IMG/VR virus record: IMGVR_UViG_3300028364_000013
Direction: 5' to 3' (one strand)
Length of the DNA: 64,000 nucleotides
Source: a virus
Lineage: Duplodnaviria; Caudoviricetes
Each line of letters begins with the position of its first letter. The first letter of the stretch is position 1. Positions 4,456 to 55,661 of this stretch are shown in pieces. Position numbers and translations under genes: made by a program. The notes under the pieces were generated by a model, which saw only the letters and a list, made by a program, of their open reading frames with translations, did not search any database and was not told where the DNA came from.

Positions 4456-4481
4456 TTATACGAAATTGATTATAAAATGTT
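4456..4481 (-). promoter_or_regulatory. ECF-sigma-type promoter
   Basis: AGAAC-N16-CGTATAA, 6 nt above an ATG at 4449. Confidence 0.75.
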
Positions 4482-11139: not shown

Positions 11140-12231
11140 TTATTTAACTTCATCCAAATTTTTCTTCAAATCTCTTAATTGTTCGATAAGGTGAATTTCA
11201 TCTTCAGAATATTCTTCTTGAATAATAAGGTCAAGCTCTACCATGTAATTTCCAAAAGCTCCTTCTGGGGCTGCAGATACACTAAAGTTCTTGCCCAAAT
11301 TCAACATTGGCATTCCATAACCTTTTAGTCTGAATACTTTGCGATTTTGAGTTCCAGGCTTAATTACAAGGTTTGTAACTTTGCCATGAATAGTTGGAAT
11401 CTCCATCTTTGTTCCTAATGCAAGGTCTTCAAAACTAACTTTATGTCTATAAACTAAGTCTTTTCCAAATCTCTCAAATTTATCATGAGCAATTTCCTGA
11501 ATAGTAAAAATAGCATCACCTCTCATTCCTCCTGGATATACTGAATAATGACCCTTTTGCTCTGTCATAAGACTCTCTCCATTTTGAACTCCTCTTGGAA
11601 ACGTTATGATAGCATTTTCAGTTTCAATTACAGTACCTTGTCCTTTGCAGTCCGAGCAGTTTTCGTCAATTATAACTTTTGCACCTTGGCACACATTGCA
11701 GGTAACTATATCTTGTCTTGTAAACGCCCCCATATTTTGAACTACAGCTCTATGCCCAGTTCCTCCACATGTAGTGCAAGAATGATAAGCAGTACCACCC
11801 TTAGCTCTGGTTCCATGACAACTTCCACAAACCTTTTTAACATTAAAAGGAACCTCTTTTGTACATCCAGTGTAACACTCTTCAAGAGTAAGCGCTATTT
11901 TTATAACAACATTATGACCCCTTTGTCTCATCATCTCCTGCTCTCTCCTAAGCTCTTCAAACATTTCTCTGGCAGAACTTCCAAATCCTCCTCCAAAACC
12001 TTGTTTGCTTGCGCCTTCCCAGTTGTGACCATACTGGTCATATAATTTTCTTTTCTCTGGGTCGCTAAGAACATCGTTTGCTTGGTTTAGTTCTTTAAAC
12101 TTTTCCTCTGCATCTGAGTCTCTAGGATTAACGTCTGGATGATACTTCTTAGCAAGTTTTCTGAATGCTTTTTTGATGTCAGCATCAGCAGCGCTTTTTT
12201 GAAGCCCTAATATTTCGTAATAATCTCTCAT
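11140..12231 (-). CDS. dnaJ: DnaJ co-chaperone
   Basis: J domain with HPD, four CxxCxGx repeats, C-terminal domain. Confidence 0.95.
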
Positions 12232-14171
12232 TATAATCTTGGGTCAATTTCTCGTTCGTTTCTTTCTTCAATTACCATCTCACCAAAAGCTTGCACATAA
12301 TGCGCATTTTCTTTGCTGATTTTGTTATATGGAATTTCAAGCAATCTTTTTCCTATTTCCCACTCGTTAACAGATGTTTCCAATTTTCTGAACACTTTTT
12401 TTCTGTTAATAAGCTTTTCAAGTTTTGTGGACATCAAGTAATCTGGTCCATAAATAATTGTCAAGTATCTTGGGTTTCTAACCTTCATTGCAGGAACTAC
12501 ACCTTTAACATAAACAGTCAATGGCTTAAGCATTATTCCCTCCATTTCTTCATCAATGGTAGTCGTATCATAAAACGCTTTAAGCTTCTTAAGGTCTTCT
12601 TCACTCTCAAGGTCAACAACAATATAGTTATCGCTATTTATGGCTTTGTAGATGTCTTCATTTGAAGCGTCAAAGAATAATTTCTCTGCTCCACCTGTGA
12701 ACACTTGCTTTAAGATAGAGAAAGGCTTAAAGTGAACTTCTCCTTCAGAACCGTAAAGCTCAATCTGACGAGAGTAAATCTTAATCATTGCATCAAAATC
12801 ATCTATGCTATCAAATTCTCTGATGTAATCTTTTATTGCTCTAAACGTTCTTTCGTTGTTAGAACCAACCTGATTGATTATATCTTTTCTTGATGTCTTG
12901 TGAGATATTGTTTCAAAATCACAATCTTTATAAGGGCCGTTAACAATTTCGTTAAGAGCTTCTTCAAAACCGTTTTCTTTAAGGAATTCTATCTCACTGG
13001 TAACAGCTTTGTCAACAGTTACAAAATTTCTTTCAATCAACCCTTTTCCAATTGAAGACCAAGGAAGAAGTTCTGCATCCAATATAAGAAGCTCAGTTTT
13101 ACCTTCAAATGCTTCTTTTATAAATGGAATCTCATAAAGAGGCTTGTACGCTTCAGTAAGGTCAAGATTCTCTGGCTTAACCATATAACCCTGTCTTGTT
13201 GTAGTATAATTCTTGCTTGAGTCTTTAAAAAGGTAGATATTAGCTCTTGAACCCATGTATTTAGGTTGTGCTATAATCTTGGTAACTCCATTTTTTCTGA
13301 AATATTCCACCCCTTTATCAAGAGACTCTAATTCACTTTCTTGAAGGTAAATATCTTTATTCTCGTCTCTAACAATGTTTTTATCCGCAGGACATATTGT
13401 TCCAGACACAAAGTTTACACTCTGCTCTGAAGCGTGGAAAATCCTCCCCCTCTCTTTGCCTTCCAGGTTATCCATAGAGATTCTTGGAGGAGGAGTAAAG
13501 AAGAAATCATTTAACTCTTTCTTAACAATGTTTTCATTTGTTGCAGGAGTTTTTCTTGAGATATTTCTACCAAACGGGTTGATAATAATAGAACTCAAGT
13601 GCCCACCGCTAACTGCACCGCTATCAAGGTTTACTTTGTTTGCTTTAATTGCAATCCCTCTTGTTGAAACGTGTCCAAACAAATGGTAAGGCAAAGAACG
13701 ACTTGCTTGCTTTCTAAAGAATCCGAAAAACTTAGACTTTGCAGCCAAGTAATCTTGCGGAGTATCAAACTCTGCTTGCTTAGGGTACACAATCGTTCTC
13801 TGATTTCTTTCTGAAACAGAGCCAAGTTTACCAAGGTACTTCTGGTCACAAGGAGCATGAGTAACAATAAAGTGGTCAGACTTCAAAAATGGCTTCATAA
13901 CTTCGTAGATGTCAAAAAACTTTTGCTTAAGCTCTTCGTCTGCTTCGAAAGTTTTAATGCTATCAAAGTAAGTGTCCATCACATCTTGTGGTGGCAAATC
14001 CTTGGCAGCCATATCATTCTTAAGAAATCTGTATACGAAATTCTCATGATTACCTCTAACCATGTAGAACATATCCATGTTATTGTGAATTAACTCAATA
14101 ACAGAACGAACATCATAACCTTTGTCTATAACGTCTCCACATAAAATGATGCGTTTTTCTTTTTTTTCCAT
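12231..14171 (-). CDS. pnkp: Pnkp C-terminal piece (rest of metallophosphatase plus adenylyltransferase/ligase domain)
   Basis: [20 protein letters not shown], then [34 protein letters not shown] end; lacks the GDIHG motif. Confidence 0.88.
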
Positions 14172-14195
14172 ATTTATTAATGTAACTTATAACAG

Positions 14196-14221
14196 TTATA
14201 CGCAAATTTAATAAAAATGTT
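14196..14221 (-). promoter_or_regulatory. ECF-sigma-type promoter dedicated to the Pnkp C-terminal piece
   Basis: TGAAAC-N16-CGTATAA, 24 nt above the ATG at 14171. Confidence 0.75.
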
Positions 14222-15263
14222 TCAAAATATGGGAAAAAAATGGACAAATAATGATTTTATTTTTTTAAAAGAAAATTATCCAAAAAAAGGCGCTCAGTAT
14301 TGCTCTGAAAAATTAAATAGAACTGTGCAGTCCATTCAAACTATGACTAATAAATTAAATATTAAATTATCTAAAGAAATTAAATCAAAAATACTAAAAC
14401 AAAGTCATATAAAAAAGTTTGACGAATACAAAATTAATCCACAACAATTTATACAAATAAACACCCCTGAAGTTGCATACTTTCTTGGATTTATTTGGGC
14501 AGATGGTAGTGTTTGCAAAAAAACGTACAAAATCACTTTGGAAATAATAAAAGATGATTTAGATACTATTTTACCTAATCTTAATAAACTTGGAGAGTGG
14601 AATATGTATGAAAGAGATAGGAATGATTGGAAGGCTCAAAAATCAATATCAACAAGTAATTATCACATACACTCTTTTTTATCTGAAAATGATTATTTAA
14701 TAAAATCTACAGCATCACCAGATAAAATTATTTCTAAAATTCCAAAAGAATTAAAACATTATTTTTTTAGAGGCTTAATTGATGGAGATGGACACTGGCA
14801 AAACAAAGGTGGAAATTATTATTTTTGCATAGCAGGTACTAACGAACAAAATTGGAATTCTTTTGAATTGATGTTAAAAGAAATAAAAATATCTAACTAT
14901 AAAAAAGAATTGCAAATAAACAAAAAAGGTGGTGGCTCTATTTTAAAAATAACCAACAAAAAAGATATTGCTAAACTTGGTGATTATATTTATAAAAACT
15001 ACGAAAATTACCAAATAGGATTGCCAAGAAAATATGAAATTTATAAATCTATAAAAGAAAAATCTTCAGTTAACAGACATTTAACAAAAGAACAGAGAAA
15101 AATTGCAAGAGAAAAAAACTTAGGAACAAAAAACCCAAACTACAAGCATGTTGATATTAATAAGATAAAAGAGTTAAGGAAAAATGATTATTCTCTTAAA
15201 AAAATAGCCATTGAATTAGGTGTTAGCACTACTATTGTTTCAGATAGATTAAAAAATAAATAA
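14217..15263 (+). CDS. LAGLIDADG homing endonuclease
   Basis: AYFLGFIWADGS and HYFFRGLIDGDGH; antisense, between the two Pnkp pieces; real start may be 14229. Confidence 0.85.
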   Translation: MFQNMGKKWTNNDFIFLKENYPKKGAQYCSEKLNRTVQSIQTMTNKLNIKLSKEIKSKILKQSHIKKFDEYKINPQQFIQINTPEVAYFLGFIWADGSVCKKTYKITLEIIKDDLDTILPNLNKLGEWNMYERDRNDWKAQKSISTSNYHIHSFLSENDYLIKSTASPDKIISKIPKELKHYFFRGLIDGDGHWQNKGGNYYFCIAGTNEQNWNSFELMLKEIKISNYKKELQINKKGGGSILKITNKKDIAKLGDYIYKNYENYQIGLPRKYEIYKSIKEKSSVNRHLTKEQRKIAREKNLGTKNPNYKHVDINKIKELRKNDYSLKKIAIELGVSTTIVSDRLKNK

Positions 15264-15268
15264 TTTAT

Positions 15269-15520
15269 TTAGTAATCATAATCATCTGGATAATGATAAC
15301 CCTCTCTATTACAATTTTCACAATGCAGAGTTCCGTCATCTCCACTATTTATGTGCTCATCATTTTTAAAATGTTCTTGATAATATGAATGTGTATCTAA
15401 TTTTGTTTTCTCTTTATCAGAACTCCACCCACAAGATTCATGATTATCAGAGAAAGGTTTATCACACAAGTCTGTCACTGAAAATTGTTTTTTACACACA
15501 CAACACAACACTATGTCCAT
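15269..15520 (-). CDS. small Cys-rich hypothetical protein
   Basis: CCVC...CENC; lies inside the Pnkp interruption. Confidence 0.55.
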   Translation of the reverse strand: MDIVLCCVCKKQFSVTDLCDKPFSDNHESCGWSSDKEKTKLDTHSYYQEHFKNDEHINSGDDGTLHCENCNREGYHYPDDYDY

Positions 15521-15579
15521 TACAACAAGAGCGCATTGTTATACCATTATCATCAGATTTATATAAACTTTTATTCACA

Positions 15580-16350
15580 TTAACCATCGTCTTTATGTCC
15601 TAATATTTTCTTATTTTCTTTATCAATTACAAACCCATTCTTTTCAAGAAGAGCAACAAATTCATCATAACACCCGTGGATGTCACCAATTGTTACGTAA
15701 TCAAAACCAGAAGGAAGAATACATTCTTGGTATTTATCGTAATCAATTATATCAATACTGTAATCATCAAGGTTATGAGATTTAATCTTTGTAATGTTGT
15801 TAAAAGTCTTTTTACTTACTTCTGACATTACACTTTCTCTCATGTATTTGATTTGACGAGAAGTAACAGCTTTGCTTTCCTCATCCTGAGAAAGGAACTC
15901 GTAGTATGGTTGTCTTCCTTTGTAGTCAAACATTACTACAGCAATGTTGTAGTTATTATCGTCAGCAATTCTTTTAATAGAATCTCTAAAATCTTTACTA
16001 AGACCAGTTGAGTCAACGACAACGAAATCAGCGTTAACTGGGTATGAAGTAAGAGCTCTCACTCTTGCATCAAGAAGTTCGAACGCTGGCTTACTTGCGT
16101 AAAGCATTTTTGCATCTTTCTTTGAAAGAGTTTGGTCTCCAAGAATTTCTCTACGAATTTCATCAGAAGCAATGTGATGAATTTTCACATCACCCTTAGC
16201 TTTTAATTCTGGAATTAATTTGTTTTCAGTAAAGTAAGTTTTACCACATCCAGAAGGCCCAATCAAAAAAACGATTGTATTCATTCTCAATTCAATCTGA
16301 GTAATATCAGACTTAGTTTTCGCTTTTATTTTAAGAGTTTCTTCTTGCAT
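15580..16350 (-). CDS. pnkp: Pnkp N-terminal piece (polynucleotide kinase plus first phosphatase motif)
   Basis: GPSGCGKT, ASDEIR, VVDST, then IGDIHGCYDEF before the stop. Confidence 0.88.
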   Translation of the reverse strand: MQEETLKIKAKTKSDITQIELRMNTIVFLIGPSGCGKTYFTENKLIPELKAKGDVKIHHIASDEIRREILGDQTLSKKDAKMLYASKPAFELLDARVRALTSYPVNADFVVVDSTGLSKDFRDSIKRIADDNNYNIAVVMFDYKGRQPYYEFLSQDEESKAVTSRQIKYMRESVMSEVSKKTFNNITKIKSHNLDDYSIDIIDYDKYQECILPSGFDYVTIGDIHGCYDEFVALLEKNGFVIDKENKKILGHKDDG

Positions 16351-16356
16351 ATTATA

Positions 16357-16382
16357 TTATACGTTATTTTTTAAAAAATGTT
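16357..16382 (-). promoter_or_regulatory. ECF-sigma-type promoter
   Basis: GAAAAC-N16-CGTATAA, 6 nt above the ATG at 16350. Confidence 0.75.
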
Positions 16383-16392
16383 TTCTGTTTTG

Positions 16393-17703
16393 TTACTTAA
16401 ATTTTACAATAAATCCTTGACTTGGTGTTACACCGTCAACAACATCTCCAATTCCAAACCATTCAGCTAACTCAATTCTGTTATTTGGCATTTCAAGAAC
16501 ATCGTTCATAAAATCCTCAAATTCTTCTCTTGTTGGCTCCCAATCATGGTCATCATGACGCATTCCTTCCATAAAGTAGTTATCATTAAATCTTGCATCT
16601 GGAGTTGTAACAATAAGAGTGCTAACGTTGCATCCAAGAATGTCATTCATTAACAACTTAGCATCTTCAATTGGCATGTGCTCAATAACCTCAGTGCAAA
16701 CAACATCAAGTTTTTTTTCTTCATCATAATTGTGATGCTCTGTTTTCATAAACCCCTTGACAGACTCAAAGAAATGAACATTCTTCATGCTCTTTTGCTT
16801 AACTCTCTTTTCGGCCTTAGCTCTCTCAACTGGGTCAATGTCCACAGCAAAATAATCTTTGTCCTTCATGAATCTATTGAACCTGGTGATGTACTTTCCT
16901 TCGCCACAACCAACATCAAGAATGTTGTTATTGAATTCAAGCCTATCTTGTATTGCCATTTGTCTGGCTTGCCATGTGTTACCAAGAGTCATAGTGATTT
17001 CATTCTTTCTATTTTTAGAAAGCTCTTCCTGCAGACCTCTGAATAACTTAAAGTTTTCAAGAAATCTAATCTTAAATAAGTATCTCACAAAGTAAGGAGC
17101 ATCCAAAATATTCATACACCTAATGTATTTAGACGCACTCTCTTCACTCACAAACATTGGTTCATTATTCACAATCGCTTGGAAGATAGAAAATAGACTT
17201 GCGAAATTTAATAATTCGTAAATAGATTTTTTAGTAGTGATTGTGATTTTATAGTTTTTTCCAGAAATTAATTCAGAATTAACCTCAAACCCTGGAAAGT
17301 AATCTTGAAATGCACTTATGTATCTTTCGTTTTTAACATATATCATGTTAATGAAAAATGTGCTCTCAAGTCCACCTTCATCTTTTTTATCTCCATCTGG
17401 AGCAGTGTATTCATCACTTTTAAATGCTGAACGAAACATTTCATCAATTGCGCTAACAACAAATGAAGCAGAATTATATCTACTTGTATTAAGGTATTCA
17501 AACGTTTCTCCTTCATAAGATGGGAATGAAACTTCATCACTACCATCTTTAAAGTAGATATTAAAACTTTGTTCATTGCCTTTGGTGAAAAACCCAAACA
17601 CAACTCCTTGTTTAATATTCTTTGCTACCAACCCTGTTCCAGGATTCTTTTTTATGATAAAGGAAAAATCCTTATTATCACTTTTCAATTGAACTATGCT
17701 CAT
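16393..17703 (-). CDS. hen1: Hen1-type RNA 2'-O-methyltransferase
   Basis: LDVGCGEG, EVIEH, VTTPDARFN, RHDDHDWE, TPSQ; directly upstream of pnkp. Confidence 0.85.
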   Translation of the reverse strand: MSIVQLKSDNKDFSFIIKKNPGTGLVAKNIKQGVVFGFFTKGNEQSFNIYFKDGSDEVSFPSYEGETFEYLNTSRYNSASFVVSAIDEMFRSAFKSDEYTAPDGDKKDEGGLESTFFINMIYVKNERYISAFQDYFPGFEVNSELISGKNYKITITTKKSIYELLNFASLFSIFQAIVNNEPMFVSEESASKYIRCMNILDAPYFVRYLFKIRFLENFKLFRGLQEELSKNRKNEITMTLGNTWQARQMAIQDRLEFNNNILDVGCGEGKYITRFNRFMKDKDYFAVDIDPVERAKAEKRVKQKSMKNVHFFESVKGFMKTEHHNYDEEKKLDVVCTEVIEHMPIEDAKLLMNDILGCNVSTLIVTTPDARFNDNYFMEGMRHDDHDWEPTREEFEDFMNDVLEMPNNRIELAEWFGIGDVVDGVTPSQGFIVKFK

Positions 17704-18448
17704 CAGCTATTGTTTTTTGTACATTTATCATATTCTACCATTACTCTATCATGTTCATCATTAATAAAGTCAGTGAAATACTTAATCTTCTGTGTAGGAG
17801 ATAGATTTTTTGATTTGTCCTTATGCTTATGGTTAACAATCTTTATTGCCTCTTTAAAAGCAACAATGCTTGCCATAGCAGTGTCTAACATGTAATCTTT
17901 TGATATATCGTCCATAAAAATCTCGTATAGTAGTTAGTTATACGATATTTTTTATAAAATGTTCTTAAAATTTAACAAGAACTGCAAGAACCATCATCAC
18001 AATCTGCATCTCCACCATTTCCAATGTTTTTTTGGATTAATTTGTTAATGTTTTGATTGATGTGGTTTTTTCCAAACTTCTTATCTAACTCTTCAGAAAG
18101 AATCTCGTGTGCTAACTTCTTTCTTGGTGCCAATCCAAACTCTACAGCAATCACCTTCTTAGCGTCATCAATTGCATTGTTAAATATGTCGTTAGCAACT
18201 TGTCTTGATTCTTTTTTTGCAAGAGCATCGTGTAGAGCAATCATGTCTTCATCATCTTCTAAAATTGCTTTTAGGTTGTCCCAGTTTAAAACTGCATACT
18301 TGATGAAACCTTTTTGAATTACTTTCTTTAGACCTTCTGCTCTTTCAATTCTTTCTCCTTCATCTTCTGGAGCTAACAATTGTGGTTGAACAAAATATTC
18401 TTGAATGAAACCTCTAAGGTCTTCATTAATTGTCATGTCTTCTTTCAT
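17703..18448 (-). CDS. two hypothetical proteins (17703..17915, 17972..18448)
   Basis: Co-oriented ORFs with normal composition. Confidence 0.6.
17938..17963 (-). promoter_or_regulatory. ECF-sigma-type promoter
   Basis: AGAAC-N16-CGTATAA. Confidence 0.75.
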
Positions 18449-22754: not shown

Positions 22755-22790
22755 AAAAAACCCGTTTTCATTAGTTATACGAAAACGGGT
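22755..22790 (-). terminator. intrinsic terminator after gltX, overlapping a promoter
   Basis: CCCGTTTTC/GAAAACGGG stem plus U6. Confidence 0.7.
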
Positions 22791-32763: not shown

Positions 32764-32789
32764 TTATACGCAAATGTAATACTTTTGTT
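32764..32789 (-). promoter_or_regulatory. ECF-type promoter of the Leu(AAG)-Gln tRNA unit
   Basis: TGAAAC-N16-CGTATAA with embedded TACATTTG. Confidence 0.8.
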
Positions 32790-32865
32790 TCAATTATTCA
32801 ACTCTTTTTTTAATTATTTTTGTCGTAAGCAATAGGGTTCAGAAATTTTTAATATATTTATTGAT

Positions 32866-36729: not shown

Positions 36730-36755
36730 TTATACGCAAATATAATACTTTTGTT
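36730..36755 (-). promoter_or_regulatory. ECF-type promoter of the Phe/Val/Leu/Arg tRNA unit
   Basis: TGAAAC-N16-CGTATAA with embedded TATATTTG; nearly identical to 32764..32789. Confidence 0.8.
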
Positions 36756-36821
36756 TCAATAAAACCTAATCTTTTTTAGATAAAATTAAAATTAATTTAT
36801 AATCACTTGATTGTTAGCGCT

Positions 36822-55622: not shown

Positions 55623-55648
55623 TTATACGTAAAATAATTAAAAATGTT
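55623..55648 (-). promoter_or_regulatory. ECF-sigma-type promoter
   Basis: TGAAAC-N16-CGTATAA, 6 nt above the ATG. Confidence 0.75.
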
Positions 55649-55661
55649 TCAGAGATAGCGG

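Follow-up and report, generated by a model that had tools for sequence, protein, structure and literature searches.

In a 64,000-nucleotide stretch of DNA (hereafter the window) taken from a 195-kb IMG/VR virus record of the Caudoviricetes (IMGVR_UViG_3300028364_000013; lake-water metagenomes), the RNA-repair gene pnkp is present as two pieces, and the break falls inside its phosphatase domain. The DNA between the pieces carries, on the opposite strand, a gene for a LAGLIDADG homing endonuclease. We regard it as likely that a homing LAGLIDADG cassette split pnkp and that the two resulting chains form a working enzyme. The comparison of intact and split alleles indicates that the split state is mobile, long-lived and selected, and the two-chain Pnkp is probably still functional.

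Organization of the split pnkp gene

The main genes at 11.1-17.7 kb of the window all lie on the minus strand. From hen1 downstream, the locus comprises the following features:

16393-17703, minus strand: hen1, encoding the RNA 3'-terminal 2'-O-methyltransferase that is the partner of Pnkp (Pfam Hen1_N, 1.3e-67, plus methyltransferase domains)
16357-16385, minus strand: variant of a promoter-like motif (GAAAACAT...CGTATAA), 6 nucleotides (nt) upstream of the ATG of the pnkp N piece
15580-16350, minus strand: pnkp N piece, 256 amino acids (aa) (Pfam AAA_33, 6.2e-9)
14172-15579, no strand: inserted cassette of 1408 bp, which forms the gap between the pieces; the intact alleles L012 and L001 do not have it, and the base composition dips here
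15269-15520, minus strand: Cys-rich open reading frame (ORF) of 83 aa with two CxxC pairs, no Pfam family
14217-15263, plus strand: LAGLIDADG homing endonuclease gene, 348-aa ORF antisense to pnkp (Pfam LAGLIDADG_3, 1.5e-9, and HTH_38)
14196-14223, minus strand: promoter-like motif GAAACA-N14-CGTATAA, 24 nt upstream of the C-piece ATG
12231-14171, minus strand: pnkp C piece, 646 aa, with its own ATG (Pfam Metallophos and PNKP_ligase, 9.3e-31)
11140-12231, minus strand: dnaJ-like gene, the conserved downstream neighbour (ORF list; Pfam DnaJ in all related loci)

The 5'-kinase, metallophosphoesterase and ligase modules of Pnkp and an adjacent hen1 are thus all present, spread over two ORFs; whereas bacterial Pnkp is normally a single polypeptide, here the two ORFs lie 1408 bp apart. 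The hen1 gene sits directly upstream of the N piece, a position kept across all related loci. The same junctions are bridged by independent assemblies, namely L011 and contigs of runs X3, X4 and X5 from three other studies, so that the arrangement represents real DNA and not an assembly artefact. All the elements listed in the original prediction, which had been made from the letters of this DNA, were recovered in the ORF list and by Pfam where it had placed them.

In the N piece, the kinase P-loop reads GPSGCGKT at residue 31, with G36 and K37 invariant in 51 homologues. The kinase is followed by the first phosphatase strand (beta1), which bears GDIHG with the metal ligands D223 and H225, and by helix alpha1; G222, D223, H225 and G226 all occupy invariant columns. 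GDIHG had been described as closing the N-terminal ORF, and it is indeed found at residues 222-226, 31 residues before the stop. The piece ends with a split-specific tail, ...DKENKKILGHKDDG, followed by the stop codon, and this tail aligns with residues 16-40 of the phosphatase of Clostridium thermocellum Pnkp (CthPnkp; 4j6o).

The C piece contains GDVIDKG (residues 12-18), GNHE (40-43), THAP (104), FGHV (165), LDSG (182) and KYMGS (304), which bears out the expectation that the second ORF opens with GDxxDKG, GNHE, H (H105) and GH (H167). Its phosphatase residues D13, K17 (instead of Arg), N41, H42, H105, H167 and D183 all fall in invariant columns. In CthPnkp, the essential phosphatase residues are Asp187, His189, Asp233, Arg237, Asn263, His264, His323, His376 and Asp392 (PMC3675462). 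For the ligase, the best PDB match is Rnl of the Pnkp1-Rnl-Hen1 complex (4xrp, 9.5e-54), whose KYMGS aligns with that of the C piece; the match to the CthPnkp ligase (3ty9) reaches 6.8e-19. In all Pnkp-type split alleles, the catalytic residues of the kinase P-loop, the phosphatase and the ligase KYMGS motif are invariant on both sides of the break.

The C-piece stop and the dnaJ start have base 12231 in common, which suggests translational coupling; the two signals also overlap in L009, L011 and L012.

Intact and split relatives

Megablast of the region against GenBank phages gave no match, and tblastn of the C piece retrieved only distant Pnkp-ligase or phosphatase matches in phages (XacN1 and phages of Vibrio, Stenotrophomonas and Microcystis), none above 31% identity. 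The original prediction had proposed a comparison with uninterrupted alleles, and such alleles exist in close relatives: L001, L012 and about 24 more. L012 encodes an intact Pnkp of 898 aa (P0132, 89% identical) in the same hen1-pnkp-dnaJ order. In L001, where the synteny is the same, a single ORF begins at a TTG and encodes 902 aa (P0140; the called protein has 894 aa) with 70% identity; it reads ...GDIHGCYEEFLALLDRNGFEIKDGKISHVEENKRIILVGDLVDKG.... Searches with the C piece returned intact proteins of 889-920 aa (P0132, 89%; P0133, 88%; P0134, 83%) together with proteins of 646-653 aa that all start at the same point, with M[QE][KE]K[EQN]K...GDxxDKG. The N-piece search gave nine proteins of 239-264 aa with 58-92% identity, and the N pieces end in ...KKI[IL]G[HYQ]K... 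before the stop (...GKIVGVK in L017). At least 11 other metagenomic alleles are broken at the same codon, with various contents between or beside the pieces:

L011 (N piece 92% identical): N piece, small ORFs, antisense LAGLIDADG gene, C piece
L006 (N piece 63% identical): same arrangement as L011
L014 and L018: antisense LAGLIDADG gene and C piece
L009 (7748-10602): 2.85-kb gap with eight co-oriented ORFs, no endonuclease gene
L016: small ORFs occupy more than 4.4 kb in front of the C piece; endonuclease gene absent
L017: 510-bp gap with two small ORFs, no endonuclease gene
L007 (3321-5570), N piece, and L014 (5914-8941), C piece: on separate contigs from a single JGI sample, and likewise in one Logan run
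L019 (4280-6752) and L020: the same endonuclease cassette, with a 59%-identical endonuclease (P0022), in a more distant phage that has no hen1 close by, where it splits a kinase-phosphatase lacking the ligase

In L009 and L016, 72 nt and 46 nt of the endonuclease 5' end have survived along with the promoter, from which we conclude that these lineages once had the endonuclease gene and that it was later deleted or replaced. L017 has neither the remnant nor the promoter motif. The L007 and L014 contigs each extend over at least 7 kb without the partner piece, and the pnkp halves are possibly unlinked. In L019 and L020, the endonuclease gene lies between a 238-aa P-loop protein ending in ...SDVHGCFEEL... 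and a 225-aa phosphatase starting with MEKKEKTIIILGDAIDKG.

The split site in L009 has also served as a landing pad for accessory genes, and its gap includes a 187-aa protein with a GmrSD_N domain (Pfam 1.7e-13).

Mobility of the cassette

The gene-body tree intersperses split with intact alleles and requires eight state changes, of which at least seven are forced by starred branches. For instance, the split allele of L009 is sister to the intact P0142, and the window and L011 are sisters to the intact P0132. Holding the split alleles together as one clade was rejected (at a cost of 893 log-likelihood units; p value of the approximately unbiased test 8.5e-9). A 46-residue tract around the junction places all 11 split alleles on one side of a branch, and none of 500 label shuffles came out as low; the support of that branch is weak (51), and eight of the 11 form a starred clade (95).

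Sliding-window identity delimits this tract. The Pnkp proteins of the window and the intact L012 are about 90% identical along their length, but only 44-68% within about 40 codons on either side of the break, where the identity of the window to the split alleles L006 and L009 rises to 80-84%. Likewise, L006 and L009 are about 65-70% identical elsewhere and 86-92% near the break. The sharpest case is the pair formed by the window and L011: their gaps are 99.86% identical (2 of 1408 positions differ) and their endonuclease genes identical, compared with flanking synonymous divergences (dS) of 0.38-0.60 for pnkp, 1.47 for hen1 and 1.72 for dnaJ. In the C piece of this pair, the first ~660 nt are 95-98% identical (one 60-nt bin at 78%), after which identity falls to about 80-87%. 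Taken together, the scattered phylogeny, the co-conversion tract and the sharing of an identical cassette by diverged backgrounds are, as far as sequences can tell, the footprint of homing with co-conversion. Among runs X1, X3, X4 and X5, no contig joined near-identical flanks across the insertion as an intact allele would, the listed joints having sides of 21-22 letters or diverged stretches.

Content of the cassette

The G+C content of the cassette is about 25-30%, with about 25% in the endonuclease gene; the flanks have about 35%. An antisense LAGLIDADG gene in a gap of about 1.4 kb had been predicted, and its ORF is as listed above; the true start is probably at 14229 (MGKKW), as in relatives and according to the gene caller. 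The protein comprises an N-terminal helical domain, two LAGLIDADG motifs (YFLGFIWADGS and FFRGLIDGDGH) and a C-terminal helix-turn-helix (HTH), with D96/G97 and D189-G192, which include the conserved acidic catalytic residues, invariant in 23 homologues. Motifs and model agree with the pseudo-dimeric alpha-beta-beta-alpha-beta-beta-alpha fold of LAGLIDADG homing endonucleases. Its AlphaFold2 model has a predicted local distance difference test (pLDDT) score of 90.2, and Foldseek matched it with a probability of 1.00 to WhiA, I-AniI, the bI3 maturase, I-OnuI and I-SmaMI. Between lineages, the endonucleases are 68-71% identical (dS 0.8-0.95), with a ratio of nonsynonymous to synonymous divergence (dN/dS, or omega) of 0.19-0.27, and they are always found at the pnkp split site. 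The gene is single-copy, with no paralogue elsewhere in the same genome, and a pattern search of IMG/VR for close relatives found none.

The original prediction also reported a Cys-rich ORF in the gap. The 83-aa ORF is present, but its standing as a gene is weakly supported: when the small gap ORFs were compared across loci, its only homologue was the near-identical copy in L011, and none turned up in the gaps of the other split loci. Moreover, an A-run is 1 nt shorter in L011 and in run X3, which puts the first 10 codons of the ORF, including the first CxxC, out of frame. We thus left it out of the mechanism because it is not conserved across gaps other than those of the window and L011; it is doubtful as a gene, not a conserved part of the cassette and probably irrelevant to the mechanism.

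A promoter-like motif upstream of both pieces

The second piece had been credited with its own ATG and its own copy of a promoter motif. Both are there, and the motif is conserved in relatives: it is kept upstream of the C pieces of L011, L006, L009, L014, L016, L018 and L019. In the window, it occupies the 57-nt divergent spacer between the endonuclease start (14229) and the C-piece start. A motif family (G/A)AACAT...N...CGTATAA is common to the regions upstream of N pieces, intact pnkp genes and C pieces in relatives. In the window, GAAACA-N14-CGTATAA has five exact copies (0.02 expected) and CGTATAA alone has 16 (3.3 expected). All but one of the 16 are on the coding strand, and 14 of these 15 sites have an ATG within the next 3-40 nt. 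A consensus scan of 13900-16500 for sigma-70 promoters and terminators was uninformative: shuffled sequences had more promoter-like sites than the real one, and no terminator followed the N piece.

The motif, in the form (G/A)AACAT-N~14-CGTATAA, is phage-wide, its 15 minus-strand sites including 1580-1607, 4456-4462, 17938-17944, 22775-22781, 32764-32791, 36730-36757 and 55623-55650. The short leaders that follow it show no Shine-Dalgarno sequence, and it may represent a phage-specific or host-specific (Bacteroidota-like?) promoter class.

Selection on the split alleles and model of the complex

Whole-gene dN/dS between split alleles is 0.07-0.13, but we set this value aside as evidence of selection after the split, since the cassette may have entered each background recently. 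The split-specific junction tract is more telling: its synonymous sites are saturated (proportion of synonymous differences, pS, 0.6-0.9), with 0.06-0.23 for nonsynonymous differences (pN) and an omega of 0.03-0.25, and the junction haplotype keeps the stop position, the ATG and the promoter. Within the clade made up entirely of split alleles, the C pieces of L006 and L018 differ with dS 0.237 and dN 0.018, i.e. an omega of 0.077. Finally, in the lineages devoid of the endonuclease gene (L009, L016 and L017), the pieces are uninterrupted, with ORFs of 239-248 aa and 646-653 aa and no stop.

In the predicted complex of the N piece with residues 1-245 of the C piece, the interaction prediction score from aligned errors (ipSAE) was 0.94, as compared with 0.00 for the best of three controls; this mark was reached by 58 of 80 solved complexes and by 2 of 110 mismatched pairs. 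The runs shared at least 99% of contacts, and partner pLDDT was at least 88. Strand 218-221 of the N piece pairs with residues 7-10 and 194-196 of the C piece, and helix 228-234 packs on residues 23-24 and 192-194. We read this model as a sign of fold compatibility and not of binding, because the domain has already been solved as a single chain (4j6o).

Weighing the explanations

A single-chain Pnkp could also be made if the pieces were rejoined, either through a group I or group II intron carrying the antisense endonuclease ORF or through split-intein halves. Phage endonuclease genes often do reside in introns or inteins (PMC3943268, PMC2677866), and phage LAGLIDADG enzymes are often intein-borne (PMC10448857), as in a survey where at least 8 of 20 LAGLIDADG genes were carried by inteins in nrdA (same reference). 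Here, however, every C piece has its own ATG and, L017 apart, its own promoter motif, and the two pieces may even be carried by separate contigs (L007, L014). A search of Rfam at E<=1 gave no match in positions 11500-18000 of the window nor in L006, L017 and L019. We hence discarded an intron with a known type of ribozyme: besides the lack of an Rfam match in these four loci, the gap sequences are unrelated except for about 70 nt (the endonuclease 5' end and the promoter) and contain no conserved ribozyme core. Right after the N-piece stop, the loci likewise show no relationship in sequence, and their gaps vary in length from 510 bp to more than 2.8 kb. A split intein was discarded too, as the residues without an intact counterpart number just 4-9 in the N piece and 6 in the C piece and no Cys, Ser or Thr stands at position +1; with so few extra residues at the break and no intein halves, protein splicing is not possible. 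Rejoining thus appears extremely improbable. It is also very unlikely, if a little less so, that pnkp was recently inactivated by a neutral-to-harmful disruption and merely looks intact because the insertions are young, as expected of a transient stage in the homing-endonuclease cycle. The cassette of the window is very young relative to its background, as its near-identity to that of L011 demonstrates, intact alleles are common and interleaved with split ones, and pnkp and hen1 likely serve an accessory function. The endonuclease lineages are nevertheless old by their identity and dS values and always occupy this site, and the junction haplotype is synonymously saturated, yet its protein, stop position, ATG and promoter are conserved. 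In addition, L009, L016 and L017 lost the endonuclease and gained gap genes while keeping both ORFs free of stops, and the low omega of the all-split L006/L018 clade stands against decay.

Slightly more probable, though still unlikely, is the explanation whereby both pieces are kept and work separately, the N piece as a kinase only and the C piece as a ligase and Hen1 partner, with the phosphatase dead and 3' healing left to another enzyme. The kinase and ligase modules are autonomous domains in CthPnkp (PMC3675462), and bacteria have a naturally divided Pnkp1-Rnl-Hen1 system (PMC4411300). Single activities can decay, as the loss of the P-loop lysine in L019 illustrates. The same allele argues in the opposite direction, however, for its motif I (SDVHG) retains the D and the H despite the decayed kinase P-loop, which suggests that the L019 N piece is kept for its phosphatase strand; its kinase may be dead while that strand is kept. 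The phosphatase residues on both sides of the break are moreover invariant in all Pnkp-type split alleles, the junction-proximal codons are synonymously saturated with omega at 0.03-0.25, and in lineages that have long been without the endonuclease gene, a dead domain as long as this one (about 245 residues) would not have been preserved.

Several points weigh against a homing cassette with two cooperating chains. Not every split allele keeps every activity, since the L019 N piece has a P-loop without lysine (GPDNSGQT). The gene-body divergence among split alleles may largely predate each homing event, and the selection argument is built on a short junction tract, one small all-split clade and the endonuclease-less lineages. 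Terminal branches are somewhat longer in split lineages than in their intact sisters (e.g. 0.12 vs 0.05-0.06), which could reflect mild relaxation. The model of the complex may owe its score to likeness to solved single-chain phosphatase structures (4j6o and relatives of lambda phosphatase). The C piece of L017 has no upstream promoter motif. Lastly, none of the sequencing runs containing the stretch is an RNA run, and both transcription from the motif and a lack of RNA processing are inferences.

Proposed mechanism

In the explanation we favour, namely a homing cassette that split pnkp into two cooperating chains, the free-standing LAGLIDADG gene sits in a surface loop of pnkp between phosphatase motifs I (GDxHG) and II (GDxxDKG). 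With the cassette, the upstream part gains a stop and the downstream part a promoter motif and an ATG, and the endonuclease gene itself runs on the opposite strand. Pnkp would then be made as two polypeptides, one consisting of the kinase and phosphatase beta1/alpha1 (256 aa) and the other of the remaining phosphatase and the ligase (646 aa). The tail of the N piece is predicted to add a strand and a helix to the metallophosphoesterase sandwich of the C piece, which would bring D223 and H225 beside D13, N41, H105 and H167 and rebuild the binuclear metal site. The rebuilt enzyme would act with Hen1 in the repair of RNA breaks, probably in tRNA.

Among related phages, the cassette would move by homing: the endonuclease would cut intact pnkp alleles near the split site, and repair off a cassette-bearing genome would copy the cassette along with tens to hundreds of flanking bases. 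It would be tolerated because the split enzyme works, and the endonuclease gene might later decay or be replaced while the two-gene state stays. Transcription from the motif, assembly in trans, enzymatic activity and the cleavage specificity of the endonuclease are what we infer from the comparisons above.

As a broader and tentative proposal, plausible in our view though not the more probable outcome, the cassette may be a self-sufficient gene-splitting module, in which the endonuclease co-evolved with the stop, the promoter and the start. Such a module would invade paralogous targets (the three-domain Pnkp and the ligase-less kinase-phosphatase) with neither intron nor intein. The split would become permanent after endonuclease decay, the gap would collect genes (L009, L016) and the halves might unlink (L007/L014), thereby offering an ongoing route from a one-chain to a two-subunit enzyme.

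Genomic surroundings

A Thg1-like gene (tRNA-His guanylyltransferase family) adjoins the pnkp pieces in L007 and L017 (L017:3726-4535), and Tpt1 (PTS_2-RNA) and an RNase_T-type exonuclease are encoded upstream in L006, L009 and L019; these surroundings look like an RNA/tRNA repair island. Genes of the DUF723, GIY-YIG/NUMOD3 and LAGLIDADG types are densely packed in these phages. In L006, a 444-aa ORF (11662-12996) located after the C piece and before the regular dnaJ matches both the DnaJ J-domain and DUF723; it may be a second gene that a DUF723-type endonuclease has disturbed or duplicated.

Significance and comparison with known systems

To our knowledge, few endonuclease-fractured genes are functional without RNA or protein splicing, namely Aeh1 nrdA-mobE, T4 39/60-mobA and split gene 43. 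The nrdA gene of Aeromonas phage Aeh1 is reportedly split by the free-standing HNH endonuclease gene mobE, an account attributed to Friedrich and co-workers in 2007. The pnkp split is a further, probably functional case in this rare class, to which it adds a new enzyme class (RNA repair), another endonuclease family (free-standing phage LAGLIDADG) and a break inside a compact metallophosphoesterase domain. The locus has intact orthologues, a defined break codon, a free-standing endonuclease and separate starts. The likeness to Aeh1 nrdA that was drawn in the original prediction holds up in these respects, as intact relatives exist and there is neither an intron signal nor space for an intein. 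The relatives form a natural allele series (intact; freshly invaded; old split with endonuclease; split without endonuclease; possibly unlinked halves) with which the life cycle of the element and the emergence of a two-subunit enzyme can be tested directly. In practical terms, the break provides a natural split point for fold complementation of lambda phosphatase or Pnkp, and the endonuclease a new LAGLIDADG scaffold whose target, the intact pnkp allele, can be predicted.

Phage endonucleases belong mainly to the HNH, GIY-YIG and EDxHD families according to the review by Stoddard (PMC3943268), and the mobile elements of T4-type phages include mobA in gene 39/60 and a seg-like gene in the split gene 43 of Aeromonas phages (PMC2988022). 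The fractured genes described by Dassa et al. (2009; PMC2677866) likewise consist of two ORFs with an endonuclease gene between them in environmental phage-like DNA; they differ by their split inteins, of which there are none here.

With CthPnkp (PMC3675462), the window shares the kinase-phosphatase-ligase order, all the catalytic motifs, an adjacent hen1 and a lambda-phosphatase-like binuclear metallophosphoesterase. In contrast, the system of the window is phage-encoded and made of two chains, with the break between the equivalents of Asp187/His189 and Asp233, and the K of motif II (GDxxDKG) replaces R237 of the clostridial enzyme in split and intact phage alleles alike. The Pnkp1-Rnl-Hen1 system of Capnocytophaga gingivalis (PMC4411300; PDB 4xrp) is also naturally divided and assembled from separate proteins, and its Rnl is closest to the ligase of the window. 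That system is, however, divided at a domain boundary (kinase-phosphatase / ligase) with no mobile element, whereas the break in the window is inside the phosphatase domain and the ligase is still fused to the remainder of the phosphatase.

The closest parallel, Aeh1 nrdA-mobE, shares with pnkp the existence of related phages with an uninterrupted gene, two separately translated chains with short new tails at the break, and an active site drawn from both chains, which here is predicted; in the Aeh1 case, the active enzyme cannot assemble without the tails that the insertion created (Crona et al. 2011, PMC3045599). The two differ in the host gene, which serves RNA repair here and nucleotide metabolism there, and in the endonuclease, a double-motif LAGLIDADG protein with an HTH encoded on the opposite strand here and an HNH enzyme there. 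They also differ in the position of the break, which in pnkp separates metal-binding motifs I and II of one small beta-sandwich domain. Function has been shown biochemically for NrdA, whereas the pnkp split is known from sequence comparison and a model; on the other hand, pnkp comes with population data, comprising split and intact alleles, a co-conversion tract, endonuclease-less lineages and the same cassette in a ligase-less paralogue.

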